A stretch of 64,000 nt of DNA from Desulfobacterales bacterium (GTDB taxonomy: Bacteria; Desulfobacterota; Desulfobacteria; Desulfobacterales; UBA11574): assembly GCA_030145345.1 (NCBI GenBank), contig JAQYVT010000004.1, forward strand, positions 992-64,991, in the 5' to 3' direction. The notes under the pieces are model-generated. The model made no database searches. It saw only the letters and a list, made by a program, of their open reading frames with translations, and was not told the origin of the DNA. Of the stretch, positions 3,781 to 46,693 are shown piece by piece (position 1 is the first letter of the stretch; the number at the start of each line of letters is the position of its first letter). The translations under genes were made by a program, and so were the position numbers.

Positions 3781-4773
3781 TTACTTTTCCGTGATGGACT
3801 CTTCTATCTTGATACCGAAATGACGTCCGCCCGCTTCCATGGCCACCAACACCTTGTCGCCGGGAACAAGGCTCACAACCGATACGGCATTGCCTTCGGG
3901 ATCGGTGAGCCGGATGGTTTCCGCGTTCTGGACGATGGTGGCAATCTCTTGGCCGTCAAAGACTGCTTTTATCAGCATCAACGGACGTTTCTCGATCTTT
4001 AAACGACCCACTATACCGGTTGATGTATTTCCTTTAAAGTCAACGATCAACACCGAATCTCCGGCCGAAAGCTCTGAAAGGTACCTCGTTTTCCCCCCTG
4101 GAATCCGGGTGTATGAATGCACCGGACCTGCATTAACCCTGAAAGGTCTTGGAGAGACGTACGGGTTGAAAATGCTTTCGGAATGAATTAAAAACAAAGC
4201 ACTGCTGCTGTTTCCCACCAGCATCCCCTGGCCCATGCCCATGGATGTGCAGGTATCCACACAGACCCGATCTCCCATCCCCACAGGTCTGACCTCAACG
4301 ATCTCGGCAGTCTGAAGGGAAATTTTATCTCCTTCCGAACGAAGCCAGGAGAGCACCTTTTTCAGTTCCACCACATCGTCTGGGTGGAAAAGAACGTGCC
4401 CCACGCCTTTTTCGAGAATACCGAAAGCCGTCTGCGCCTCGTCAAGATTCTTAACCTGGGCAATGACATCAGCGCCTTTGGCGATCAGGTTCTCAAGGGG
4501 GATAATGGTCCAGTCGCTGCATTGAAGAATGACACGTTTTGTCTGACTGAGCTTCGTAATTTCTTCTTCATCCTCGCCGCTTTTGATCTCGAAAAAAACC
4601 ACATCTTTTCCCAGCTTTAAATCACCGTCTTCGGAAATGGTCTGAACCCTTCCCAGAGCTTTTACTTTTTCGGAAAATCCCTTTGGAACCACGATACCGT
4701 CTGCACCGCCTTCAAGTGCAGTGGTCACCATGTTCTTGTCCCAGGGATCCACCTTTACCCATATCTTTCGCAT
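3781..4773 (-). CDS. 3-dehydroquinate synthase II (archaeal-type, AroB-prime)
   Basis: 330 aa. The MRKIWVKVDPWDKNMVTTALEGGADGIVV N-terminus is typical of the MJ1249-like DHQ synthase II family. Adjacent to the ADH synthase gene and aroA. Confidence 0.85.
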   Translation of the reverse strand: MRKIWVKVDPWDKNMVTTALEGGADGIVVPKGFSEKVKALGRVQTISEDGDLKLGKDVVFFEIKSGEDEEEITKLSQTKRVILQCSDWTIIPLENLIAKGADVIAQVKNLDEAQTAFGILEKGVGHVLFHPDDVVELKKVLSWLRSEGDKISLQTAEIVEVRPVGMGDRVCVDTCTSMGMGQGMLVGNSSSALFLIHSESIFNPYVSPRPFRVNAGPVHSYTRIPGGKTRYLSELSAGDSVLIVDFKGNTSTGIVGRLKIEKRPLMLIKAVFDGQEIATIVQNAETIRLTDPEGNAVSVVSLVPGDKVLVAMEAGGRHFGIKIEESITEK

Positions 4774-4808
4774 TGCATTGTTCCCCTTTTAAAACCTCGA
4801 CCCGAATA

Positions 4809-5606
4809 CTATCCCAGAATCTTCAGTGCATCTTCCACGCTGCTGTCATCATGGACGATGGCGGAGATCGCACGTACCATGCGCGTCGGGTTTTCATGCT
4901 GAAAAACATTCCTGCCGATGGAAACACCGGCACCGCCGGCGTCGATGGAACCTCTTACCATTTCGAGGATATCCCGATCGGAATCCATTTTAGGGCCGCC
5001 GGCAATCACCACGGGAATCGAACAACCGGCCACAACTTCTTTAAACGTTTCCACCGAGCCGGTATAGGATACCTTGACAATGTCCGCACCCATCTCTTTT
5101 CCAACACGTGCAGCATGTTTTATCACGTTTACATCATACTCGTCCTTAATTTTTTCCCCTCTGGGATAGATCATTGCAAGCAACGGCATCCCCCATTTAC
5201 GGGCCTCACTGCTGACCGTCCCAAAATCATGCAGCATCTCTTTTTCCTGCCCGTTCCCAAGATTTACGTGTATGGATACGGCATCTGCACCCAGTTTGAT
5301 CGCCTCTTCGACGGTACACACCAGAGTTTTGACATTGGGATACGGTGAAAGACTGGTAGATGCAGACAGGTGGATGATCAGACCGATATCTTTACCCTTC
5401 CCGCGATGCCCTTCACCCACAAGCCCTTTATGTTCCACGATGGCATTTGCGCCCCCTTCCGCCACTTTTTGGATGGCATCCTTCATATCCTTCAGGCCGT
5501 CGATAGGGCCCATTGAAATGCCGTGATCCATTGGAACAATTACGGTTCTCCCTGTATTCCGGTTTTTTATCCGCTCGATTCGGATATGTTTGCCTAAATA
5601 CGTCAT
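4809..5606 (-). CDS. 2-amino-3,7-dideoxy-D-threo-hept-6-ulosonate (ADH) synthase, DhnA-type class I aldolase (AroA-prime)
   Basis: DhnA/MJ0400-like sequence ([31 protein letters not shown]). I chose ATG 5606 as the start because AGGAGG sits 7 nt upstream. The track ORF start at 5699 would read through the terminator hairpins. Confidence 0.8.
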
Positions 5607-5623
5607 GTTACAATCCTCCTTTG

Positions 5624-5660
5624 AAAACAAAAAAGGCCGTGAAGTTTTTTCTCCACGGCC
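5624..5660 (-). terminator. Leader terminator hairpin T1 (proximal), immediately before the operon RBS
   Basis: Minus-strand GGCCGUGGAG-AAAAAA-CUUCACGGCC (10 bp including one G-U pair) followed by UUUUUUGUUUU. The RBS and ATG 5606 follow about 15 nt later. Confidence 0.6.
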
Positions 5661-5663
5661 CTT

Positions 5664-5702
5664 AAAAACAAAAAACCGTGGGGTTTTCTGTCTACCCACG
5701 GT
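5664..5702 (-). terminator. Leader terminator hairpin T2 (distal)
   Basis: Minus-strand ACCGUGGG-UAGACAGAAAAC-CCCACGGU (8 bp) followed by UUUUUUGUUUUU. Confidence 0.6.
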
Positions 5703-30818: not shown

Positions 30819-32414
30819 ATGCCCATTAATCAATTAAAAAGCGCACTGCGTTTTTATTTCATTACCGATGAAGATGTCACCGGCTTTTCTCCGGTGAAGC
30901 AGGTACAGATTGCCATAAAAGCCGGAGCGACCATTGTCCAATACCGAAACAAATCTTTTTCTCCGCGGTTTTTCGAACAAGTTGTCGTTATAAAAAACAT
31001 CTGTAAATGTAACGCGATTCCTTTTATTATCAATGACGACATCCTGCTTGCCAAGGCGGTGATGGCCGATGGGGTCCACCTCGGTCAGGACGATGAAGAT
31101 CCTGCTCTGGCGAAACGCATTTTAGGTCCTCAGGCAATTATTGGCACGTCCGTATCCAATCTTGATGAACTGAACGCTTCAGATCTGTCCGTTTGTGACT
31201 ACATCGGAACAGGCCCTGTTTTCTCGACCCTAACAAAAGTCGATGCAAAAAAGGTTATCGGGCTTTCCGGCCTAAAAGCCGTTGTAAAGGCATCCCCGGT
31301 TCCGGTGGTCGCCATCGGCGGTATTGACCAGACAACCGCAGCATCCTGTTTCGAACAGGGTGCTGCAGGCGTCGCAGCAATCAGTGTCGTTACCCGGGCC
31401 AAGGACCCTTTGCAAAACGCTTTACAAGTCGCATCGGCTTGCGGATGCAAGCCCCCTTCTGCAGTTGCTTCGCCGTGGAATGATGAATTCGCACTGATCA
31501 AAAAGCTAATTAAAAAAATGCCGGCCGATTCATATCTTCGAATTCCACCCGGCGATGATGCCTGTCTTCTGATGCCGATAAACCACCCGGTCATCACAAC
31601 AGATACGCAAAAAGAGGGGGTTCACTTCAGACTCGAGTGGCAGACGCCTGAAGAGGTGGGCAGCAAAGCCGTGGAAGTTACACTCAGCGATCTCGCGGCT
31701 TCGTATGCTGCGCCCATAAGCTTTTTTGTCAATCTCGCACTTCCGGGTTATATTTCAGATCAAACCGTCGAAAATATCTATAAAGGGATTAAAAAATCCC
31801 TGGCAAAACACAACTGCACATTGGGCGGCGGTAATATTTCCGCCGGGTTTGAGCTGACGTTAGATCTTTTTGCAATCGGCCAGGGGCGCAAAGATATCTT
31901 CCCGGTACGTTCAGCGGCGCTACCCGGGTATAACCTATATAGTACGGGGCTCCTTGGACTTTCCCGTGCCGGCTTAGAGGCATTGATCAGAAAAGATGAC
32001 ACATTCGACGAACTGATCGCAAAATTCAAATCCCCCTCGGCCCGGTTTGACGCAGCACAGGTACTGGCAGAAAACAAGGTCACCTGTGTTATTGATGTCA
32101 GCGACGGCCTGGCAGGTGATGCAAAACGGATCGCAGAAGCATCTGAAATTTCCGTATCCATCGATTTAACGTCCAGGGCATTCCACCCGACACTGGTATC
32201 ATTCTGCGAAAAATACCGGCTGATTCCCGAAGAAATGGTCCTGGCCGGCGGTGAGGATTACGAACTTTTGTTTGCTTGTACCCCGGACCTGTTTGAAACT
32301 ATGAAAAAAGATCTTCCATCGGCGTTTAAGGTCGGCCGCTGTCTCGAATTTCAAGGGACACATATGGTGAATATGCCGAGGAATATTTCATCTTTTCAGC
32401 ACGGACTACGATAA
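30819..32414 (+). CDS. Bifunctional thiamine-phosphate synthase / thiamine-monophosphate kinase (ThiE-ThiL fusion)
   Basis: The N-terminal 210 aa are ThiE-like (FYFITDE..., GADGVHLGQDD, IGGI). The C-terminal 320 aa are ThiL-like (EFALIKKL...GDDACLL, DTQKEGVHF, DVSDGLAGD, GGEDYELLF). Confidence 0.85.
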   Translation: MPINQLKSALRFYFITDEDVTGFSPVKQVQIAIKAGATIVQYRNKSFSPRFFEQVVVIKNICKCNAIPFIINDDILLAKAVMADGVHLGQDDEDPALAKRILGPQAIIGTSVSNLDELNASDLSVCDYIGTGPVFSTLTKVDAKKVIGLSGLKAVVKASPVPVVAIGGIDQTTAASCFEQGAAGVAAISVVTRAKDPLQNALQVASACGCKPPSAVASPWNDEFALIKKLIKKMPADSYLRIPPGDDACLLMPINHPVITTDTQKEGVHFRLEWQTPEEVGSKAVEVTLSDLAASYAAPISFFVNLALPGYISDQTVENIYKGIKKSLAKHNCTLGGGNISAGFELTLDLFAIGQGRKDIFPVRSAALPGYNLYSTGLLGLSRAGLEALIRKDDTFDELIAKFKSPSARFDAAQVLAENKVTCVIDVSDGLAGDAKRIAEASEISVSIDLTSRAFHPTLVSFCEKYRLIPEEMVLAGGEDYELLFACTPDLFETMKKDLPSAFKVGRCLEFQGTHMVNMPRNISSFQHGLR

Positions 32415-36267: not shown

Positions 36268-38082
36268 TTAAGGCTGTTCCCACGTAACCCTCAGCACCTC
36301 CTGATAGGTGGTCTTGCCGGCGAGCAGTTTTTTCAAAGCATTGCCTCGCAGCGAAACCATCCCCTCTGCCTTGGCCTGATTGCGAATGGTTTCTATATCC
36401 ATACTGGCGTTTGTCATTTTTTTCAACGACTCCGAATACGGAACCACTTCGAAAATACCGGTTCTCCCGTAATAACCGGTGCCCCGGCATTTCTGACACC
36501 CCCTGCCCCGATAAAGCGTTATCCGTCCGTTTTTTTCAACATCCAGCCCCATGGTCCTCAGTTCCGCCGTTTCCATATCAAAGGGTTCCATGCAGTGGTT
36601 GCAAATCTTTCGAACCAGGCGCTGAGCCATTATGCCCACCAGGGTACTCTGGATCAGAAACGGAGGGACCCCGAGATCAAGGAGTCGTGTGATCGACGAA
36701 GGCGCGTCGTTGGTATGGAGGGTCGACAAAACCAGATGACCGGTCAATGCCGCCTGAACCGCATTTTCAGCGGTCTCGAGATCTCTCATCTCCCCGATCA
36801 TGATGATGTCCGGGTCCTGCCGTAATATATTTCTCAGGATCGTCGCAAACGCAATTCCGATTGCCGGTTGAACCGCAATCTGGTTAAACTCCTCGCACAC
36901 CATCTCGATGGGGTCTTCTATGGTTGTAATATTAATCTCAGGCGAATAGATATCTTTGAGCGTTGAATAAAGGGTGGTCGATTTGCCGCTCCCCGTGGGA
37001 CCGCAGACCAACACGATTCCATGGGGCATATTGATAAATTTATTGTAGCGAATCAAATCCGTAGATGTAAAACCGAGCTTTTCCAGATCCTGAAAAAGGA
37101 CATCCGGATCCATGATCCGCATGACCAACTTCTCTCCAAAGGCTACCGGTATGGTCGAAACCCGCATCTCCACCTCAACACCGCCTTTATCGGTTTTAAT
37201 TCTTCCATCCTGGGGCCTTCTCTTTTCTGCCATGTCCAGCCTGGACAGGTTCTTTATCCTGCTGACAATGGCGGAATGAACATTCTTGGGAAGTTGATGC
37301 ACGGTATGCAGAACGCCGTCAATACGCATCCTAACCAGGCTTACATCCCGTTTGGGCTCGATATGAACGTCACTGGCCCGCTGATCAAAAGCGTATGTGA
37401 AAAGGTAGTTCACGGCATTCACCACATGCTGATCGGTGGACGGAAGTTCGTCTGCGGATTTCAACCGCACATACTGCTCGAGATTCCCCAGATCAACCGA
37501 AGGACCTGCAAACTGGTGTTCTGCTGCAGCAATAGAGCGTTTAAAGCCAAAGAATTCATTGATCAGCTTAACGATGTCGGATTTTGAGGTGACAACCACC
37601 TTGACTTTAAGCTGACTGGCCCGGGCAATATCTTCCATAACCTCCACGTTAAAAGGATTGGGGGTTGCAACGGTGAGGTGCCCGTCCTTTATGGCAATGG
37701 GGAGTACCAGATGTTTCATGGCAAAGCTTCGCGGAATCGTAGTGGTCACCAGATTGAGATCCAGCTTTAAGGGATCGATTTTCTTGAACGGGATTTTCCA
37801 TTCGTCTGCAAGGGTTTGGAATATGAGTTCCTCATCCACCACTCTGGAATCAGCACCCGAACATTCCAAATTCAAAGCGGCAATGATATCGATGCTGGTG
37901 ACGGGATTTACAGACCTTCTCCCTGAAGCCGAGTTACGGTTCTTTTGCTTTTTTAGCCTGGCCTCCAGCACATCCTTTTTTTTAAGGATTTGCTCTGCCT
38001 GGCCGGATGTAATGAGCCCTTTTTTTAAAAGCGTCCGGCAAACATTTTTTGCGGACAATCGGCTCTGCATGTCATTTTTCAT
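36268..38082 (-). CDS. GspE/PilB-family type II secretion / type IV pilus assembly ATPase
   Basis: 604 aa with Walker A GPTGSGKST, an Asp box and His box, and a C-terminal tetracysteine (CNHC...CQKCRGTG). Last gene of the pilus module. Confidence 0.9.
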   Translation of the reverse strand: MKNDMQSRLSAKNVCRTLLKKGLITSGQAEQILKKKDVLEARLKKQKNRNSASGRRSVNPVTSIDIIAALNLECSGADSRVVDEELIFQTLADEWKIPFKKIDPLKLDLNLVTTTIPRSFAMKHLVLPIAIKDGHLTVATPNPFNVEVMEDIARASQLKVKVVVTSKSDIVKLINEFFGFKRSIAAAEHQFAGPSVDLGNLEQYVRLKSADELPSTDQHVVNAVNYLFTYAFDQRASDVHIEPKRDVSLVRMRIDGVLHTVHQLPKNVHSAIVSRIKNLSRLDMAEKRRPQDGRIKTDKGGVEVEMRVSTIPVAFGEKLVMRIMDPDVLFQDLEKLGFTSTDLIRYNKFINMPHGIVLVCGPTGSGKSTTLYSTLKDIYSPEINITTIEDPIEMVCEEFNQIAVQPAIGIAFATILRNILRQDPDIIMIGEMRDLETAENAVQAALTGHLVLSTLHTNDAPSSITRLLDLGVPPFLIQSTLVGIMAQRLVRKICNHCMEPFDMETAELRTMGLDVEKNGRITLYRGRGCQKCRGTGYYGRTGIFEVVPYSESLKKMTNASMDIETIRNQAKAEGMVSLRGNALKKLLAGKTTYQEVLRVTWEQP

Positions 38083-38108: not shown

Positions 38109-38969
38109 TTACTTCCCGGGAGATGGTTTGGTTCTCCCCAATTCTTTATCGATCAACACCTGGAATTCTTTGGGCGACCAATTCCTCAAAAGTCGTCCGC
38201 CAATAAAAACAGTGGGCGTCCCCCTGATGCCGGCCTGGTTTCCATCGAGAATATCCTGTCGTATTTGGCCCAGAATTCCGGAATCTTTCATCTGTTTTTC
38301 AAATTTTTCCATATCAAACCCCAGATCTCGGGCAATATCTTTTATCTTTTGATCACTGAGCTGTTTATAATTTTCAAAAAGTCGGTCATGGAACGCCCAG
38401 AATTTTCTCTGTCCGTCGGCTGCAAGCGCTGCTATAGCGGCCTGTGTCGCATATTTATGTCTTCTGAGGGGAAAGTTCTTAAAAACAATTTTTACGTTTC
38501 CCGGATTATTCTCGAGCACCTGCTCGAGGAGAGGCACGATCCTCGCGCAGTACGGTCACTGAAAATCGCTGAACACAGCGATCACCACCGGCGCGTCTAC
38601 CGGTCCCTTAAAAGGCGATCCGGAGATGTTGATTTTGTGGATAAAATCGATGGCAAGAACCTCAACCGTTTTGTTCTTGCGGCTGCTGAGTAGAAGCAGG
38701 TTATCTTTAGGGCCGACCCTGATTTGATCCACATGACTTCCAACGCTCATTTTATCTTCTAATTTTCCTTTTGACGAATAGATCAGAATGTTTCCTGAGT
38801 CGTTGAGAACGAAAATCCATTTCCCGTCCGTGGACACCGCAACATCCACAGGGGGGGTATCCATTTTCAATTTCTGCTGGACATCCCATTCAACACGGGC
38901 AAAACTTTCTGCAGAAAAAACCACTATCGTCAAGACCGCCGCCAGGAAAATCAAAATTTTTTGTTTCAT
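38109..38969 (-). CDS. Predicted selenoprotein: secreted DsbA-like thioredoxin-fold oxidoreductase with in-frame TGA (Sec) at 38558-38556
   Basis: Track ORFs 38556-38969 and 38109-38537 are in the same frame. Reading through gives ...VVIAVFSDFQ-TGA-PYCARIVPLLEQVLENNPGNVKIVFKNFPL..., so the TGA sits at the first Cys of the CPYC motif of a DsbA-type domain. Only the upstream part has a signal peptide. The downstream part has no ATG or SD of its own. Confidence 0.75.
38511..38545 (-). promoter_or_regulatory. Candidate bacterial SECIS hairpin(s) downstream of the UGA
   Basis: mRNA: UGA CCG UAC UGC GCG AGG AUC GUG CCU CUC CUC GAG CAG GUG CUC GAG. Hairpin a is GAGG-AUCGUG-CCUC, with its loop 16-21 nt after the UGA. 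Hairpin b is CUCGAG-CAGGUG-CUCGAG, with its loop 34-39 nt after the UGA. Both loops contain GU. Confidence 0.4.
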
Positions 38970-38992
38970 GTTAAAACCCTTCGTTAAAACGG

Positions 38993-41900
38993 TTAATCTT
39001 TCTCCATCCAGCTGGTACTGCCGGTCTTTACACTTTTCAGCGGCAGATTGGGCTGAGGAATCTCAACAATGGTACCGGTACTGGTTTGAACGAAAGCTTT
39101 GCTTCCTTCCTCTTTCCCCACATGGAGATCCGGCGTTGTGGCCAGACCACGCCCCAGATCCATGCGGGCCTCAACATTGCCGTTCCCGTCGAGTGCATTG
39201 TCACCAAATACGCTCTCATACCATGCGGTTCCGGTTCGAAAATAAACCCCGTGAAGATAAGAAAACCCCTCGGCCAGGCAGACATCATCATAGGGCTGAT
39301 AGGTTGTGAATGTAAGTAATCCGCCCAAAAGAGCGCCCTGCCCCAGATTCCGTTCTCTATCGTCGGCAAATTCCTTGTACCATCCGTCGGTTCCGGTGGA
39401 GTAGCTCCGGCCTACCGGCGCCGTCCCGTCATCACAGCCGGTTCCGGCAATGTAACTCTCCAGTGCCGAAAACGTGGTAATTCCGGTGGGGAGACAGTTG
39501 GTTGTCAGGTCGACACATGAAAGGGCGGCATTCGCAGCAGTGGTTGCTTCTTGGACCAGAATATCACCGACCTGCAGCAATCCCTGGGATCCGGGGGTGG
39601 TGTTGAAGGTTCCGGTCTTTTCTACGGTTTCCCAGGTGAATCCGTCACAGTTTCGCGGCTCTTTGATGCCGAAATAAGCCTCCTGAGCATTGCTGCTGGA
39701 ATCGGTTTTATCGTCTGAATCTAAAAATCGTCCGGTGCCGAAATAGATCCAGTAATTCGTGCCGTCGGTTCCGATGGACGCTGCACCGGTCACCGGCCGG
39801 CCCGCATCGATCAGGTAAAGGGGATTGCTCAGCGGACTTATCAGCGTGGACCAGTCGCTGGGACTGGTCACCAGCTGACTTCGAGGGGTACCACTGTCCA
39901 TTTCTCGGGTGACCATCCGGTATAGGCCGCCCCCCCAGCTGCCCCAGGTGCCAGAGACCGTCCCGAAATATACGGCATCTGTCTTGTAATTACTTTCAAG
40001 CTCAACGTCCACGGATATCAGATCCGATACAAAGCTGTTGGCGGTCAGCGTAAAAGTGCCGCCTTGGTCATTGGCCACCGTCGGTATTGCGTCGGGAATT
40101 CGGAGCGCCTTGGGGGTTCCCACCAACCAGCTTAAAGGCAGGACCGCAAGTTTGGCGTCCTGGGTGCTCGTACCGTCCACATTCGTCGGTCCGCTGCCAA
40201 GAATCAGATACCAGCTTGTGTCGCTAACGTCAGCACCGTTTTTCATGCTCACCATTGTCGGTGAAGCTGTTGTATATCCAAGATCCACTTCGGTACCGCC
40301 GGTTGTCAGGGTTATCTCGCCCAGCAGTGTCGGCGGGCCTTCGGGATCGGTAATGTCGAGAATAACATACGCAGAGGTGAACTCTCGTGTGTCGGCCGGA
40401 TAATCCGCAGAACCGTTATCATCCAGATCCAGTGTGCCCGGAAGGATCTTGGCACCGCCGAACCGCATCCCCTGAACCATAATCGTCCCCCAGCCGCCGG
40501 TATGAACGCCGTCGGTGGGATCGAAAATCCGCACGTCAAAGACTCTCGGGTGCAAATCCACGAAATATTTGTGCTCATATGAAGGATCTGTCAAACATTT
40601 TAGATGCGGCAACAGATTATAGGGAACATACGCCCACAACTCAGCACCCAGCTCCGGTCCCGCTGTTTCTGACTGGCAATCGGCGGTCAGGCAGAATTTT
40701 TTTTGGGTTTCATTATAAAACCCGCCGTTGACGGCATGGATCATGCCGTCGTTGGCCCCAAAGTAGATCACATTCCGGCGGTTCTTATAGGTGTTCACAA
40801 ATTGTGCATAAGAAGTGTCCCGGTATAGAAAATGAAAGCCTTCACTGGGTCGGGTCACTGAAATGGGCGTCGAGTGGACCACATCCCCGAGCCGCCAGGT
40901 AACATCCGCCGGGTTGCCGTCCAGATCGAAGTCGAAGGGCATCTCCCGGCTGCGCTGCCCGGCCTGATCATAGCCCCGCACCCATTTTACGATCTCGTTC
41001 ACCTCGGCAGTGGTCTGCAAACCAAAATCGAGGGGCACCGGGCCCCGGGAAGCGTCGACGGTCAGTGCGGCCCAGTCGTTGGTGGTGTCAAAATCGAGAA
41101 TTTCACTGCTGTCGACAATACCGTCATTGTCGAGATCATTCCAGGTGAAAACATAGCGTTTTTTTACATTGGAAATGAATCCGGTGGTGGTTCCCACCGA
41201 AATTCTGTTGACAAGGATGTTCGTATTCGCATCAGATGCCGTGGGGGAAATATCTGCAAGCCATTCTGATGCAGACCACATGTAATGAATATCTTCCAGT
41301 CCTTTGGATGTTCCGTTGCAGGTGCCGTCCGTATTCAACTCGCCGTTGCAGGCTTTGGTCGTGCCCGCGGATTCGTCGTAATAAATCACCACCGTCGCAT
41401 CGGCGGCATCCAGGGTCCTGTCGCCGTTGGTGTCTTCATACAGGTTCGCGTATTCGTCCACGAACAGGGCATGCACCTCTCCGATCCAGTCGACAGAACC
41501 GCCACCGGACAGTTCCACCGTAGGCCAGAAAATGGCCTGATAGACCGCCCCTTCACCCCCCCGGGACGCAGATATGACCGAAGCGGCGGAGCCGGCTGCA
41601 GCGCCTGCCCGGATCGACTCAAAGGCGTTTCGGAGGGCGGTTTCCAGCTGGGCGGGGTCTGATGCACTGTAAAGCGTGGTACCCCCGTTGGTGGCAGCCT
41701 CTGCCAAGAGGACGTCGGGACTGCATTCATCGGCCCCGGTGGACCGCAAGGTTCCTGCAACCACGATGTGGGTGTTAACGTTCTGTTTGTCCTCTCCGTT
41801 GAGCTGTGTGGGATAAAGACTGCTGCTGTTCTGGGCATAATAGGTCAAGTCATCCAGATACGAGCTGCCGGAAAGCGAACCGCAGTCCACACTGTCTTCA

Positions 41901-44035
41901 CTGTCCAGATCATTCTGTCCCTCGGCCGCGACAAAGGCGCCGACGGTACCATTCAAATCTGCTGTGGACGCCCCTTCGGTGATGATAAGGATATTGTTCT
42001 TCTGGCAATAGGCGGTAATGGGATCATAACCGGAGCCGATGTTAAAATCATTGCTGTCCAGACGGAGCGCACTGTTCTGGCTGTAGTATCCCAAGGCATT
42101 ATAAAAGGCCTCGGCCAGGGGAGTCCAGGATGTGGCCTTGATATCGTTGACGGCATCCACCAGATTTGTGGTATGGGAACTCGACTTGTCGATATCCGAG
42201 ATGACCTGGCCCCCGTCCCGGTTCGACGGGTCCGAACAGTTATACAGGATAAAAGGATCCGGCTGACTGCACTCGCTGTTGGAGCCTTCGAAGTTAAACG
42301 CCATGGCCCCCATCCGGATGTCGTCGGAAAACTCCTGGATGAGCCCGCTGGGTGCGGACGATTTCGAAATATACCCCTGAACCACCCCAAGGGGCTCACC
42401 GATCTGGGCAACGACCCCCGAATCGATGAGCACCGCCGGGATATTCCAGAACTCACCGGTTTCGCCGGCCTGATCACTGGGGTCCACGACTTCGGGAATT
42501 TCCATATTGCCGCAATAGTCTTGCATGGCCGTTTCGATACAGGTATCCACATCCGCATATCCGGCAGCATCCCAGCCGGGTAAAGTACCCCCCACATATT
42601 CCCATTTCTTGCAATCACCGGTTTTGGGTCCGGAAGTAAAGTAACCGCCGGTGCAGGTCAGTACTGCGCCCGCCCCCGGATTCCAGCAGCGGCCCACATA
42701 GCCGAGTTGATTGGCCGGAACAGCGGCATAGAGTCCATAGCATATATAACCACGATCGTCGGATTCGATGTTCCACGGTTCTATGTTTGAGTATATGTCC
42801 TCACAGACATTCTTCGTGGAACTAACCACTCCCACCCCCGGTGGCCAGTCACCGTTTTTTGTCTTATACCAGCAGTTGTGAATGGCATGGTTAAAGGCTG
42901 CATGGGAGTTAGCCTCGGGACTACTTCCTCCGCCCTCCGAATACCCCATGCAGTCGTCGATATACACCTTCAACTGGCCCTGGTTGGGGCTGTCCTTGCC
43001 CAGCTCGGTTACGGCATTTTGGCAGGCGCTGTTATCAAACCCGTTTGTGGTTACAGGAAATATTTCAATATGGGTGAGATTGTAGGGAACCCAGTCTGTT
43101 ATGCCGGTATCATTGTCAACGCCGGTTCCGCCGGCCGTGCCGCCGACGGCGGTGATGTACAGCCGGCCTTCATCGATGGTATTGGCTTTGCCGGGATCCA
43201 CGACAATACTGCCGGCCGGATACGTGGCGCCGCTGGTCCACCGTGTGAGGGTGTAAGGTGTCCAGGACACCCCGGTATCATCGCTGGTGCTGCTTCCGGA
43301 CGAAGTGCCGGCAGAGGTTGCGATATACAGCTCTCCTGCGTCGTTGACCACATCCCCCACCGCATAGGCGGTTGCATCTTCCCACGGATCGAATTGTTGC
43401 TCCCGGGGCGGCCGTACGGCCAGGGTCAAATACTTTGTTCCCCCGTTTATATTGTCGGTAACCTGTACCTGCTTGGTATAGCGCCGGTCGAGGCAGCCCC
43501 TCGATTCCATGACGAGTCTGTTGTTGGTGCTGTCATATTTGCCGCCGGTGAGGATCTCTTTTTGAACGTCAAATTTCGAGGCCATGACCCAGTTGAAGAA
43601 GTTCCCGAATGCCACAAATGCCGTGGGGCTGGGGGTGGAATCGAGCAGTATCCAGACATACCCGTTGTAGTACCAACCGCCGGTACTGTCCTTTCCGGTC
43701 CAGTGAGCCGCAATGGAATAGACTTCGAAATAGTCGCCTGAAAAATTGTATGCATACAGAGTATTCCGATCGAAATATCCGGCATAGGTGCTACTGTGAT
43801 TGTAAGTGTCGTCAAAACACTGGCTGCCGTCTTCGACATACGCCATATCGATCATGCTCCCGGAGTTGTCGATCAAAAGGAGAAGATTCGGGTCCACGCC
43901 GCCGGCCAGAAACGGCGGCAGTGCCACACCGCTGCCGCAATAGTCAACAGCGTACAAATTCGGCGGTGCCGATCCGCTGAACAACAGCAAAATAATAAAC
44001 ACCATCAATGGGATATGTCTCTTGAAGCGTGTCAT
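38993..44035 (-). CDS. pilY1: Giant PilY1/PilC-like type IV pilus tip adhesin with N-terminal vWA (MIDAS) domain
   Basis: ATG 44035 (AGGAG upstream) gives a signal peptide MTRFKRHIPLMVFIILLLFSGSAPPNLYA. Also has LLLLIDNSGSM (DxSxS), later vWA elements (IRMGAMAFN, SWTPLAEAF, ILIITEGAS), a PilY1 C-terminal-domain start (WRLGDVVHSTP), and several DxDxDG-type loops. Confidence 0.8.
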   Translation of the reverse strand: MTRFKRHIPLMVFIILLLFSGSAPPNLYAVDYCGSGVALPPFLAGGVDPNLLLLIDNSGSMIDMAYVEDGSQCFDDTYNHSSTYAGYFDRNTLYAYNFSGDYFEVYSIAAHWTGKDSTGGWYYNGYVWILLDSTPSPTAFVAFGNFFNWVMASKFDVQKEILTGGKYDSTNNRLVMESRGCLDRRYTKQVQVTDNINGGTKYLTLAVRPPREQQFDPWEDATAYAVGDVVNDAGELYIATSAGTSSGSSTSDDTGVSWTPYTLTRWTSGATYPAGSIVVDPGKANTIDEGRLYITAVGGTAGGTGVDNDTGITDWVPYNLTHIEIFPVTTNGFDNSACQNAVTELGKDSPNQGQLKVYIDDCMGYSEGGGSSPEANSHAAFNHAIHNCWYKTKNGDWPPGVGVVSSTKNVCEDIYSNIEPWNIESDDRGYICYGLYAAVPANQLGYVGRCWNPGAGAVLTCTGGYFTSGPKTGDCKKWEYVGGTLPGWDAAGYADVDTCIETAMQDYCGNMEIPEVVDPSDQAGETGEFWNIPAVLIDSGVVAQIGEPLGVVQGYISKSSAPSGLIQEFSDDIRMGAMAFNFEGSNSECSQPDPFILYNCSDPSNRDGGQVISDIDKSSSHTTNLVDAVNDIKATSWTPLAEAFYNALGYYSQNSALRLDSNDFNIGSGYDPITAYCQKNNILIITEGASTADLNGTVGAFVAAEGQNDLDSEDSVDCGSLSGSSYLDDLTYYAQNSSSLYPTQLNGEDKQNVNTHIVVAGTLRSTGADECSPDVLLAEAATNGGTTLYSASDPAQLETALRNAFESIRAGAAAGSAASVISASRGGEGAVYQAIFWPTVELSGGGSVDWIGEVHALFVDEYANLYEDTNGDRTLDAADATVVIYYDESAGTTKACNGELNTDGTCNGTSKGLEDIHYMWSASEWLADISPTASDANTNILVNRISVGTTTGFISNVKKRYVFTWNDLDNDGIVDSSEILDFDTTNDWAALTVDASRGPVPLDFGLQTTAEVNEIVKWVRGYDQAGQRSREMPFDFDLDGNPADVTWRLGDVVHSTPISVTRPSEGFHFLYRDTSYAQFVNTYKNRRNVIYFGANDGMIHAVNGGFYNETQKKFCLTADCQSETAGPELGAELWAYVPYNLLPHLKCLTDPSYEHKYFVDLHPRVFDVRIFDPTDGVHTGGWGTIMVQGMRFGGAKILPGTLDLDDNGSADYPADTREFTSAYVILDITDPEGPPTLLGEITLTTGGTEVDLGYTTASPTMVSMKNGADVSDTSWYLILGSGPTNVDGTSTQDAKLAVLPLSWLVGTPKALRIPDAIPTVANDQGGTFTLTANSFVSDLISVDVELESNYKTDAVYFGTVSGTWGSWGGGLYRMVTREMDSGTPRSQLVTSPSDWSTLISPLSNPLYLIDAGRPVTGAASIGTDGTNYWIYFGTGRFLDSDDKTDSSSNAQEAYFGIKEPRNCDGFTWETVEKTGTFNTTPGSQGLLQVGDILVQEATTAANAALSCVDLTTNCLPTGITTFSALESYIAGTGCDDGTAPVGRSYSTGTDGWYKEFADDRERNLGQGALLGGLLTFTTYQPYDDVCLAEGFSYLHGVYFRTGTAWYESVFGDNALDGNGNVEARMDLGRGLATTPDLHVGKEEGSKAFVQTSTGTIVEIPQPNLPLKSVKTGSTSWMEKD

Positions 44036-44192
44036 ACCATGATCTCCTATATCGAGAATATCGAGAACTCCATTCCCCTCTTTCACCCGGCTATTTCTTA
44101 ATTACAACATGCCGTGGTTCCATGAAAGTGCAATAGATCCTTGCTCTACTTTAGACGCTATAATTTCAACCGCTTGTATCAGCTTTGCCCGG

Positions 44193-44807
44193 TCAGTAAT
44201 TACAAGCCCCTTCCTGGCCGACCAAATGTCTCCATTGACTCATAATCTCTGCCTGACTGTTGCTGGTTCCCAGGTGCTGCGAATAGACTCTATAAACGAT
44301 ATAAGCTCCGCCGGCACCGGCGCCTTTGCCCTTGCCCTCGTATCCGGCGGACATTTGAATGGCACTTCCGGTGGACAGCTGGGTGGCGCCGTAGATGCTT
44401 AAATTGGTGTGGGGACCTGTGTCTGTAGTGTATACTCTGATATCCCTTTCCGAATTAGAGGGATAGTCGCTGGTGGGTTCAGACTCCTGGAGCCAGAAAT
44501 CCTTGGTGTACACCCGGACATCGGTGCCGATATCCAGATATCCGACCCCTTCGTTAAAGGTGGAAAAACCGCCGGGGCAGGCAATATTCTGCTCCAGCAT
44601 TTCGAACCCCACCTCGGTTCCACCATCGGCTTCATAGAGCGCCTGTTTATGACGATCATCGTTTCCGGCAATCTGAACTTCGATGCTGGACGTCATGGTC
44701 GCGGAAATCCCCAAAAGGGTCAAAAGCGCCAGCATGATCAACGCAAGCACCGTAATGGAGCCGTTTTCAGGGTTTAAAATTCTTTTTTCTTTCAAAAATT
44801 TGTTCAT
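44193..44807 (-). CDS. pilX: PilX-like minor pilin / pilus assembly protein
   Basis: The N-terminus NGSITVLALIMLALLTLLGISATMTSSIEVQIAGN resembles a PilX_N domain. Its position between pilV and pilY1 fits. Confidence 0.65.
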   Translation of the reverse strand: MNKFLKEKRILNPENGSITVLALIMLALLTLLGISATMTSSIEVQIAGNDDRHKQALYEADGGTEVGFEMLEQNIACPGGFSTFNEGVGYLDIGTDVRVYTKDFWLQESEPTSDYPSNSERDIRVYTTDTGPHTNLSIYGATQLSTGSAIQMSAGYEGKGKGAGAGGAYIVYRVYSQHLGTSNSQAEIMSQWRHLVGQEGACNY

Positions 44808-44904
44808 AAATCGTTCCAGCTCAGCCGGTTAAAAAATTGTCACGTTACGTCTCAATGCGTAAAGGCACCGCCTGGATATCCAGATTTTTCAAGAAGATAC
44901 AGGG

Positions 44905-45294
44905 TTACCAGTCCGATTTCATACAGGTCAGTCGGGATGTTTTCCCCTTCCCGGTCACCGTTACGACGATTCGTTTTGTATTGGGAACCGGGGTGTTGTC
45001 GGCAATATCCCACCTTACGGCATACCCGTCTGAAGTCGTTTGCTCATGGGTATTTCCGGCCGAATCCACGCCAGAGGGGTTCCCGGCGGCTTCAAGCCAG
45101 GGATCGGAAAACGGCAGTGCCTTCAGTTCTTCCATCTTGTCCTGGGCCCAGTTCATCCGGGTGGTCATTTGACCCGCAGCTGAATTCACCTGAATGGCAG
45201 AGGTCTGCATGGCGGCAACACCCAGCAGACCCACGGCCAGAATAGAAATGGCGATTACCACTTCGATGATTGTAAAACCGGCATCGTTTTGCAT
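44905..45294 (-). CDS. pilV: Type IV minor pilin PilV-like
   Basis: Prepilin signature MQNDAG/FTIIEVVIAISILAVGLLG with Glu at position +5. ATG 45294 chosen. Confidence 0.75.
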   Translation of the reverse strand: MQNDAGFTIIEVVIAISILAVGLLGVAAMQTSAIQVNSAAGQMTTRMNWAQDKMEELKALPFSDPWLEAAGNPSGVDSAGNTHEQTTSDGYAVRWDIADNTPVPNTKRIVVTVTGKGKTSRLTCMKSDW

Positions 45295-45354
45295 TGCTCT
45301 GTTTTCAGTTCCCCGATTTTTATGATCTGCTGAACCTAATCTCATCCGATCATC

Positions 45355-46020
45355 CTATATACCCAAATTGCGGCATTTGATAAATGTTGTCATAGACTTG
45401 CGGCTGAAATTGTCATTTTGCGCACCCAGAATCTGGGTCCCTTGCTGGTTATAATACAGGTTGTTATCCTTGGTAACTCTCAACGCCCTGCTGGTTCGGG
45501 CCACGATGGTTATCTCCACGGATCTGATATCCGTCAGCGTTGCCGTTGTATTTCCGTCCGCGTCCAGATAGGCAAAATCGAGGGCATCGATATTTTCAGC
45601 CACCACCTGATTCCCGCCGCCGGTATCCCTGACAAGATTATTTTCGGACAGGGCATAGGCGATGCCTTCATTGGGATCATTGGTCGCCCCATCCGGGTCA
45701 CTGCCGTCCGCATCACCCCGGACATCCTCTGTAAAACTGATAGAATTGGCGTTTGCCGTAAGAATTCCGGCCCCGGCATTACCGGTGGGATCGCACCCTG
45801 CCATCCGGATTTCCTTGGTCATGTAAAACATTGCGGTCCTGATATTCTGCTGCATGGCGGCAACTTCCTCCTGCATCAAATACGATTTATGCTGGGACTG
45901 AAACGTCGAATAGATTCCCCCAAGAACCAGCAAAAATATGGTCATGCTAACCATTAGCTCGATGAGGGTAAGGCCCTGATTTGAAACTTTTGGGTATCTC
46001 AGTGTCTGTTTTAGCGTCAT
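45355..46020 (-). CDS. pilW: Type IV minor pilin PilW-like
   Basis: Prepilin signature ...SNQG/LTLIELMVSMTIFLLVLGG. ATG 46020 overlaps the fimT stop (ATGA). Confidence 0.75.
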   Translation of the reverse strand: MTLKQTLRYPKVSNQGLTLIELMVSMTIFLLVLGGIYSTFQSQHKSYLMQEEVAAMQQNIRTAMFYMTKEIRMAGCDPTGNAGAGILTANANSISFTEDVRGDADGSDPDGATNDPNEGIAYALSENNLVRDTGGGNQVVAENIDALDFAYLDADGNTTATLTDIRSVEITIVARTSRALRVTKDNNLYYNQQGTQILGAQNDNFSRKSMTTFIKCRNLGI

Positions 46021-46484
46021 TCCCATGAACTCCCACCGACCCATTTCTGCAATTTAATCACCCCGGAGGTCAGCGGACCGACCCTGAAATATACCGTGTT
46101 ATTCGAATTTGACAGGTAGGCATACCCCGCATTGCTCGTCCCCCGGGAATTAAACGTTATCGTTGTGACGGCAAAGGTTTCATCGTCCGGACCGTTAAAA
46201 TTTACACCACTGCCGTAATCCTCCAGAACAACGGTTTTGCTTAAAGCACCGCTTAAAACATACTGGTCCGGATCGGTGCTATAGGTAACCGTGCAATTTA
46301 CATTGGACTTAACCGCCGTCATTTTTGCCAGCTGCATGTTGGAATAAAGATCCCTGGCCGCACTTTTCAAGCGATATTTTGGAATCCAGCTCATAAAATT
46401 GGGGACGCCTATCGCAACGAATATAGATAAAACAGCGAGCACCACCACAAGTTCGACCACGGTAAATCCCGATTTTTTTTTCAT
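46017..46484 (-). CDS. fimT: GspH/FimT-like minor pilin
   Basis: MKKKSG/FTVVELVVVLAVLSIFVAIGVPNF prepilin signature. The ORF extension up to 46547 would cover the promoter. Confidence 0.75.
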   Translation of the reverse strand: MKKKSGFTVVELVVVLAVLSIFVAIGVPNFMSWIPKYRLKSAARDLYSNMQLAKMTAVKSNVNCTVTYSTDPDQYVLSGALSKTVVLEDYGSGVNFNGPDDETFAVTTITFNSRGTSNAGYAYLSNSNNTVYFRVGPLTSGVIKLQKWVGGSSWE

Positions 46485-46518
46485 GACTCCCATCCTAATA
46501 AGCCCCCGATGTTTTTTA

Positions 46519-46534
46519 TACAAATTTCGTGCCA
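46519..46534 (-). promoter_or_regulatory. Candidate sigma-54 promoter of the minor-pilin operon
   Basis: The minus strand reads TGGCACGAAATTTGTA. The -24 element is perfect (TGGCACG), the spacing is correct, and the -12 element is TTGT instead of TTGC. It lies 34 nt upstream of the fimT ATG. Confidence 0.45.
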
Positions 46535-46693
46535 AGGGGGTTGCCATTATTAAGGGACTTTAAAAAATGAACTCGATCAAACTACATTATGATTATATCG
46601 ATTTGATATAATTAGCAATAACCGAGAGGAACTTTGAGGGCTTTAGAATTGATAACTTCGGATTTGAAGTGAAGCAATGCATTAAAGGCTATT

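Follow-up and report, generated by a model that had tools for sequence, protein, structure and literature searches.

A putative selenocysteine-containing DsbA/BdbD-type oxidoreductase encoded by two adjacent reading frames in a Desulfobacterales bacterium

Two adjacent open reading frames (ORFs) on the minus strand of a 64,000-nt stretch of DNA, hereafter the window, very probably constitute one gene (a probability of roughly 0.9). As judged from sequence comparisons, this gene would encode a periplasmic oxidoreductase of the DsbA/BdbD (Thioredoxin_4) type, with selenocysteine (Sec), specified by the UGA codon at 38558-38556, as the predicted nucleophile of its redox motif.

Selenoproteins with a UxxC motif of the DsbA-like and DsbG-like (Thioredoxin_4, pfam13462) kinds have been catalogued since 2005 (PMC1088965, PMC1794560, PMC9312934). 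Both UxxC classes have deltaproteobacterial members, and Deltaproteobacteria are rich in Sec (PMC1794560, PMC9312934). The replacement of Cys by Sec in thiol-disulfide oxidoreductases, to which the initial annotation of this DNA appealed, is thus an established pattern in this group, as the UxxC classes in these catalogues attest (PMC1794560, PMC9312934). The gene described here adds one more periplasmic UxxC oxidoreductase to those of the selenoprotein-rich Deltaproteobacteria and does not change any concept.

Structure of the gene

The minus-strand frame from 38969 to 38109 consists of 286 codons and contains a single in-frame TGA at 38558-38556, which is codon 138. ORF 38556-38969 (-) terminates at this TGA, and ORF 38109-38537 (-) opens in the identical frame at a GTG codon (38537-38535), 18 nt past the TGA. 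Translation across the TGA starts with VFSDFQ-TGA-PYCARIVPLLEQVLENN, and the longer stretch reads FSDFQ-[TGA]-PYCARIVPLLEQVLE. The source record annotates a 137-aa fragment only. The features of the putative gene are as follows.

38109..38969 (-): complete putative selenoprotein gene, with ATG at 38969-38967, Sec-TGA at 38558-38556 and the stop codon TAA at 38111-38109
38977..38982 (-): presumed Shine-Dalgarno-like GAAGGG, 7 nt 5' of the ATG, from reading the sequence
38898..38969 (-): predicted signal peptide for the Sec export pathway, residues 1-24 (MKQKILIFLAAVLTIVVFSAESFA), recognised by eye in the translation
38616..38888 (-): N-terminal beta domain of about two YVTN-type beta-propeller blades, residues ~28-118
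38145..38615 (-): thioredoxin-fold domain of the DsbA/BdbD/ScsC type, residues 119-275
38547..38558 (-): redox motif U-P-Y-C (TGA CCG TAC TGC), with the Sec codon at 38558-38556
38214..38216 (-): Pro252 (G-T-P-T), invariant in a 62-sequence alignment

The Pfam domain Thioredoxin_4 (PF13462) matches residues 119-275 with an E-value of 7.5e-29 (101.5 bits against a cut-off of 23.2), and DSBA (PF01323) matches with an E-value of 5.9e-24 (85.4 bits against 25.6). Because both matches span the TGA, neither ORF alone is a complete domain: the upstream ORF holds the signal peptide and the first strand of the domain, and the redox motif is missing from the downstream ORF. Consistently, a protein search yielded 623 homologues. 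Nearly all of the best 120 are single chains of ~284 aa and share the two-domain layout, so that the two halves are not normally separate genes among these best matches. The shared frame, the domain that spans the TGA and the single-chain homologues together bear out the earlier proposal that the two ORFs are one gene.

Domain architecture and fold

The upstream piece had been described as carrying a signal peptide and a short propeller-like segment. The propeller-like segment is real: positions 28-119 of the family profile match residues 64-160 of a YVTN propeller (PDB 1l0q, about two blades) with an E-value of 1.3e-11, and further propeller matches of this domain in Pfam and NCBIfam are weak. 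The signal peptide is a reading by eye, as is the predicted cleavage context, in which MKQKILIFLAAVLTIVVFSAESFA is followed by RVEW. With only about two YVTN blades, the N-terminal domain (38616-38888) is an incomplete propeller. N-terminal domains mediate oligomerisation in ScsC, DsbC and DsbG, and two-blade lectins oligomerise into a complete propeller. By analogy, the two-blade N-terminal domain might complete its propeller by oligomerisation.

The structure model used here is the AlphaFold2 model of a Cys homologue (P0002, pLDDT 93.5) that is 63% identical to the window protein. In this model, an N-terminal helix of low pLDDT, which corresponds to the signal peptide, precedes a beta domain of seven strands (pLDDT >90) and a thioredoxin fold with a helical insertion, in which the redox motif sits at the N-terminus of helix 1 and the cis-Pro loop is conserved. 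Foldseek places 3gyk and BdbD (3eu3) as the best matches of the model (E ~1e-12), followed by ScsC and DsbA structures, and the TM-scores against 3gyk and BdbD, normalised to the target, are 0.78-0.85. The C-terminal domain matches structures of 3gyk, BdbD, alpha-DsbA2, ScsC and DsbA. From DsbA and BdbD structures, Pro252 is presumably the cis-proline opposite the redox motif in the thioredoxin fold.

UGA and Cys codons among relatives

In alignments, codon 138 falls in the column of the first Cys of the homologues, which places the TGA at the N-terminal Cys position of the CxxC motif, as had been suggested. Among the best 120 of the 623 homologues, the motif is C-x-x-C, mostly in the form DFQCPYC, and both motif Cys residues are invariant or nearly so in the 62-sequence alignment. 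The initial annotation had left open whether Cys or TGA fills this column in orthologues, and both occur. The same codon is TGA in 29 further orthologues that are 41-91% identical and belong to several deltaproteobacterial lineages; these comprise 13 genome loci, 14 metagenome loci and two database proteins recorded with Trp (W) whose DNA was fetched. Of the 14 loci in genome assemblies whose motif can be read, 13 carry TGA at the exact codon and one carries TGC, and metagenome contigs carry TGA in 14 of 17 loci and TGC or TGT in three. The genome loci with TGA include orthologues of 41-48% identity from Desulfobulbia, Desulfocapsaceae, Ca. Magnetocorallium and Desulfopila sp. IMCC35008, the last of which (L006) has its TGA within a complete genome. 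In a neighbour-joining tree, Cys forms lie between the Sec forms, which make up at least four clusters, and the sister clade of the Sec clade of the window gene, P0001-P0003, consists of Cys forms.

Four database homologues (P0005, P0046, P0048 and P0110) are recorded with W at the first motif position. P0005 and P0046 carry TGA in their DNA, which was checked in loci L036 and L040. Therefore, the gene caller had used an alternative code in which TGA is Trp, and the W entries, two of the four having been checked in DNA, are a systematic mistranslation of selenoproteins. The main value of the present analysis accordingly lies in annotation. TGA orthologues in public databases are either fragments or mistranslated with Trp, and hence the Sec forms of this subfamily are largely invisible to searches at the protein level. 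In addition, the family offers a clean case of patchy exchange between Sec and Cys, with SECIS-like hairpins that persist in Cys forms of the sister group, and is useful for studying the gain and loss of Sec sites.

The window gene and 12 close loci share a frame of 861 nt that contains a single internal TGA and closes with the same TAA. Among these 13 sequences, pairwise dN/dS is 0.176 before the TGA and 0.177 after it. The UGA codon and the frame downstream of it are thus conserved under purifying selection in the orthologues.

Several copies deviate from this pattern. An orthologue of ~90% identity in the MAG AB_1215_Bin_118 (L005:2419-3212) is frame-shifted and lacks residues 133-153, and with them the redox motif and the SECIS hairpin described below; the loss is either genuine and inactivating or an artefact of the assembly. 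The locus in PVMK01163074.1 (L026:2501-3361) has many frameshifts across the orthologue and its PilY1 and PilB neighbours, and damage spread over the whole locus suggests an error of assembly or sequencing, not the decay of this one gene. The gene for protein P0058 (L039:1212-2108) has CGA (Arg) at the Sec/Cys codon and yet retains a perfect 7-bp SECIS-like hairpin downstream, which may reflect either a read error or a TGA-to-CGA change, the latter giving a redox-dead protein. In P0054 and P0064, Ser occupies the Sec/Cys position.

A conserved hairpin downstream of the UGA codon

The initial annotation had pointed to two small hairpins after the UGA. Both exist; hairpin 2 is conserved and SECIS-like, and hairpin 1 is not conserved.

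38534..38548 (-): hairpin 1, 6 bp with a GGA loop, +11 to +25 from the U of the UGA, -7.0 kcal/mol
38511..38528 (-): hairpin 2, predicted core of a bacterial SECIS, stem of 38528-38522 with 38517-38511 and an AGGU loop at 38521-38518

A bacterial SECIS (bSECIS) model describes a loop of 3-9 nt, a stem of 4-16 bp, a minimum free energy of -7.5 kcal/mol or lower, a G in the first two loop positions and a distance of 16-37 nt from the UGA (PMC13188914). Hairpin 2, CUCGAGC-AGGU-GCUCGAG at +31 to +48 counted from the U of the UGA, falls within every one of these limits, with a 4-nt loop that starts 34 nt after the UGA, a 7-bp stem and an energy of -10.7 kcal/mol. The loop has a G at position 2, followed by another G (U in L004 and L040). 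The offset of hairpin 2 is identical in every TGA orthologue. In a 14-sequence alignment, hairpin 2 is 99% paired as against 18-53% for slid controls, and four of its seven pairs have changed on both sides in a compensatory manner, with no one-sided changes. Some of these compensations couple a non-synonymous with a synonymous change, namely E>K with CUC>CUU in L006 and L>F with GAG>GAA in L011-14.

Hairpin 1 was rejected as a SECIS candidate. Its loop, 13 nt from the UGA, and its energy of -7.0 kcal/mol lie outside the bSECIS limits, and its register is not conserved between clades, with 76% pairing in the best common register. Hairpin 1 is probably not a SECIS and at most an accessory lower structure. 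In alignment columns 10-29 (window 38549-38530), the Desulfobulbia orthologues form a covarying helix, UGCGGC...GCCGCA, which is out of register with hairpin 1 and lies, within the motif region, between the codon of the second Cys and that of the Pro. This helix may be a lower stem of the SECIS that is specific to this clade.

Rfam gave no family at the gathering threshold on the whole window and only noise at E<=10 on 38440-38620.

Genetic code and Sec machinery

TGA is the ordinary stop codon of 9 of the 36 other, Pfam-verified genes of the window, and no other window gene needs read-through; therefore, the genetic code is standard. A scan of the 64-kb window for other genes split by TGA gave antisense or artefactual pairs only, and no other selenoprotein gene. 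ARAGORN found no tRNA gene, including selC, in the 64-kb window, which belongs to an NCBI contig of 71,058 bp, and Pfam scans found no SelA, SelB or SelD among the 36 window ORFs. The AIRS-domain proteins among them are only a ThiE-ThiL fusion and PurL. We infer the Sec trait of the host genome from the gene itself together with the known abundance of Sec in Deltaproteobacteria (PMC1794560, PMC9312934, PMC8318568).

In the proposed mechanism, SelB-GTP-Sec-tRNA(Sec) would bind the mRNA hairpin at 38528-38511 and deliver Sec to the UGA, and the ribosome would then continue through the remaining thioredoxin domain to the TAA. The protein would be exported by way of its signal peptide, and a selenenylsulfide/selenol-thiol couple would replace the disulfide/dithiol couple. 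The enzyme may thereby make or rearrange disulfide bonds in proteins of the envelope. In this lineage, the Cys-rich PilY1 and the pilins may be its clients.

Alternative explanations

A change of TGC or TGT to TGA could have killed a Cys-type DsbA gene, so that the 137-residue fragment or nothing functional is made. Such a change is a single substitution, Cys is found in most family members as well as in the sister clade P0001-P0003, the source record holds the 137-aa fragment only, and some assemblies contain damaged copies (L005 and L026). However, the presence of the same TGA in 29 further orthologues, the most distant of them 41% identical, a frame that stays open after the TGA with a dN/dS of 0.177 equal to that of the upstream part, and compensatory changes that keep a SECIS-type hairpin at a fixed distance rule against a nonsense pseudogene, which the initial annotation had named as a possibility and which is now extremely improbable. 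The model of two separate genes posits a secreted fragment with the propeller segment and a DsbA-like protein that has its own start at GTG 38537. It would leave the second product with neither a signal peptide nor the first beta-strand nor any of the redox motif, and the homologues are single chains of ~284 aa. ORF finders do list two ORFs, and a GAGGA lies 2 nt ahead of the GTG, so that the earlier statement that the downstream piece has no Shine-Dalgarno sequence or ATG of its own holds only in part; however, the spacing is poor, and the GTG is not conserved, being replaced by GTT in four close relatives and by GAG, GCG, GGA, GCA or CAG in distant orthologues. Given the conservation of the TGA, the dN/dS values and the unconserved GTG, neither a pseudogene nor two independent genes fits, and the probability of the latter is practically negligible. 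The UGA might be read otherwise, by near-cognate Trp or Cys read-through or by genome-wide reassignment as in codes 4/25, a reading in line with the four database homologues recorded as DFQWPYC and with the lack of Sec machinery in the 64-kb window. This reading is very improbable in view of the 9 of 36 Pfam-verified window genes that end with TGA and the lack of any other gene that needs read-through; moreover, a redox-inactive W-P-Y-C fails to explain the strict conservation opposite Cys homologues, and the conserved hairpin fits the SelB-dependent model.

Insertion of Sec could also proceed through a different or non-canonical element, with hairpin 2 being a by-product of the L-E-Q-V-L-E peptide that it encodes or having another role. 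Because the CUCGAG sequence is self-complementary, this region is predisposed to pair. When LEQVLE was codon-randomised with the codon usage of the window, however, all seven pairs formed in only 0.5% of draws, and the compensations in L006 and L011-14 that join non-synonymous with synonymous changes also speak against a by-product. Three close Cys-form homologues with the LEQVLE peptide keep 6-7 of the 7 pairs, and thus hairpin 2 is not exclusive to TGA forms, whereas the more distant Cys forms L007, L027, L028 and L031 have lost it. One hairpin-keeping Cys form, P0001, sits in the sister group of the Sec clade of the window gene in the neighbour-joining tree, which is consistent with a recent switch between Sec and Cys. 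The lack of an Rfam match, the presence of hairpin 1 and the helix at +10 to +29 that covaries within the Desulfobulbia clade are in favour of this alternative. Taken together, a peptide-driven origin of hairpin 2 is weakened although not fully eliminated, and a role of hairpin 2 other than that of a SECIS is unlikely.

Relationship to known selenoproteins and oxidoreductases

The predicted Sec-containing oxidoreductase resembles the DsbG-like class (pfam13462) in that Thioredoxin_4 is its best Pfam domain, Sec is the first residue of UxxC, the protein is predicted to be secreted and the homologues mostly have Cys. The catalogue example of this class is the Rcas_1661 (seleno)lipoprotein family of NCBIfam, of which the window protein is not a member: it scores 83.4 bits against NF041057, whose equivalog cut-off is 190 bits, and only residues 115-274 are aligned. 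On this score, the window protein belongs to a separate subfamily within the same kind. Two features separate it from the Rcas_1661 lipoproteins: its predicted signal peptide lacks a lipobox Cys, and its N-terminal part carries an additional YVTN-like domain of two blades.

The "DsbA-like protein form 1" (PF01323) was first found in the Sargasso Sea and occurs in Anaeromyxobacter, Desulfovibrio and Desulfotomaculum (PMC1088965, PMC1794560, PMC13188914). The window protein shares with this form a PF01323 match above threshold (85 bits against 25.6), the UxxC motif, deltaproteobacterial hosts and a bSECIS just downstream. However, form 1 was originally tied to COG2761 (FrnE-like), and the architecture of the window protein differs; the comparison with form 1, whose representative is NIP15863.1, is by class description.

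The closest folds and profiles are those of BdbD of B. subtilis, ScsC of Proteus, Salmonella and Caulobacter, and alpha-DsbA of Wolbachia (3gyk, 3eu3, 6eez and 4xvw). The position of CxxC, the helical insertion and the conserved proline loop are shared with these proteins, and like ScsC, DsbC and DsbG, the window protein has an extra N-terminal domain. In contrast, BdbD, ScsC and alpha-DsbA all use Cys instead of Sec, and at the N-terminus they have helical or DsbC-type oligomerisation modules rather than propeller blades.

Hairpin 2 also resembles the E. coli fdhF-type SECIS and the bSECISearch consensus, being a stem-loop within the coding region that follows closely on the UGA and has a small apical loop, an early-loop G followed by G or U, a spacing within 16-37 nt and an energy of -7.5 kcal/mol or better. 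It differs in that its spacing of 34 nt is near the upper limit and its helix is a perfect 7-bp one with no bulged U, and it is a predicted element.

Genomic neighbourhood and type IV pilus genes

The gene lies among type IV pilus genes on the same strand.

38993..44086 (-): PilY1-like protein, 1697 aa with 28 Cys, upstream neighbour at 23 nt (T4P_PilY1, E 3.8e-11)
36268..38082 (-): type IV pilus assembly ATPase of the PilB/MshE type, downstream neighbour at 26 nt (T2SSE, E 8.9e-124; MshEN, E 4.1e-20)
44193..46547 (-): minor-pilin genes farther upstream in this cluster, assigned by Pfam
44193-44807 (-): PilX-like gene of the minor-pilin cluster
45355-46044 (-): N-methyl pilin-like gene of the minor-pilin cluster
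46017-46547 (-): GspH/FimT-like gene of the minor-pilin cluster

The PilY1 propeller model matches only residues 1066-1474 of the very large PilY1-like protein, whose N-terminal ~1000 residues fall outside the match.

The PilY1 gene adjoins the oxidoreductase gene in every locus of ~90% identity that extends upstream and in the Cys-form locus L035, and the PilB gene adjoins it in every such locus that extends downstream. The Desulfobulbia orthologues adjoin phoH and ybeY-pdxJ instead, and another Cys homologue has an unrelated gene context. A family-wide linkage to pili was therefore rejected, as pilus genes adjoin the gene only in the ~90% clade and in L035, and a role in pilus biogenesis is a lineage-specific hypothesis only. 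Since the gene lies between pilY1 and pilB, the Cys-rich PilY1 and the pilins are plausible clients, and the PilY1-like protein is a possible substrate. A literature search found no paper that links Sec, DsbA and type IV pili.

By analogy, a more elaborate scheme can be drawn for this lineage, in which a Sec-containing DsbA dependent on selenium would be dedicated to the pilus. Its two-blade YVTN domain would oligomerise into a full propeller to give a multivalent isomerase for the 28-Cys PilY1, and because the UGA-containing gene is immediately upstream of pilB (a 26-nt gap), the supply of selenium could gate pilus assembly through translational polarity. This scheme as a whole is speculative and decidedly unlikely.

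Other gene arrangements

In the Desulfobulbia loci L006 (4799-5998) and L011 (4891-6093), the YbeY endoribonuclease and PdxJ are encoded in one ORF of ~400 aa downstream of phoH, an apparent gene fusion. Elsewhere in the window, a 531-aa ORF at 30819-32414 (+) joins a thiamine-phosphate synthase (TMP-TENI/ThiE) with AIRS/AIRS_C domains that are ThiL-like and not SelD, and appears to be a ThiE-ThiL fusion. At 3781-5699 (-), genes for a 3-dehydroquinate synthase II (DHQS-II) and an aldolase of the DeoC/LacD family adjoin the EPSP synthase gene, which suggests an archaeal-type entry into the shikimate pathway.
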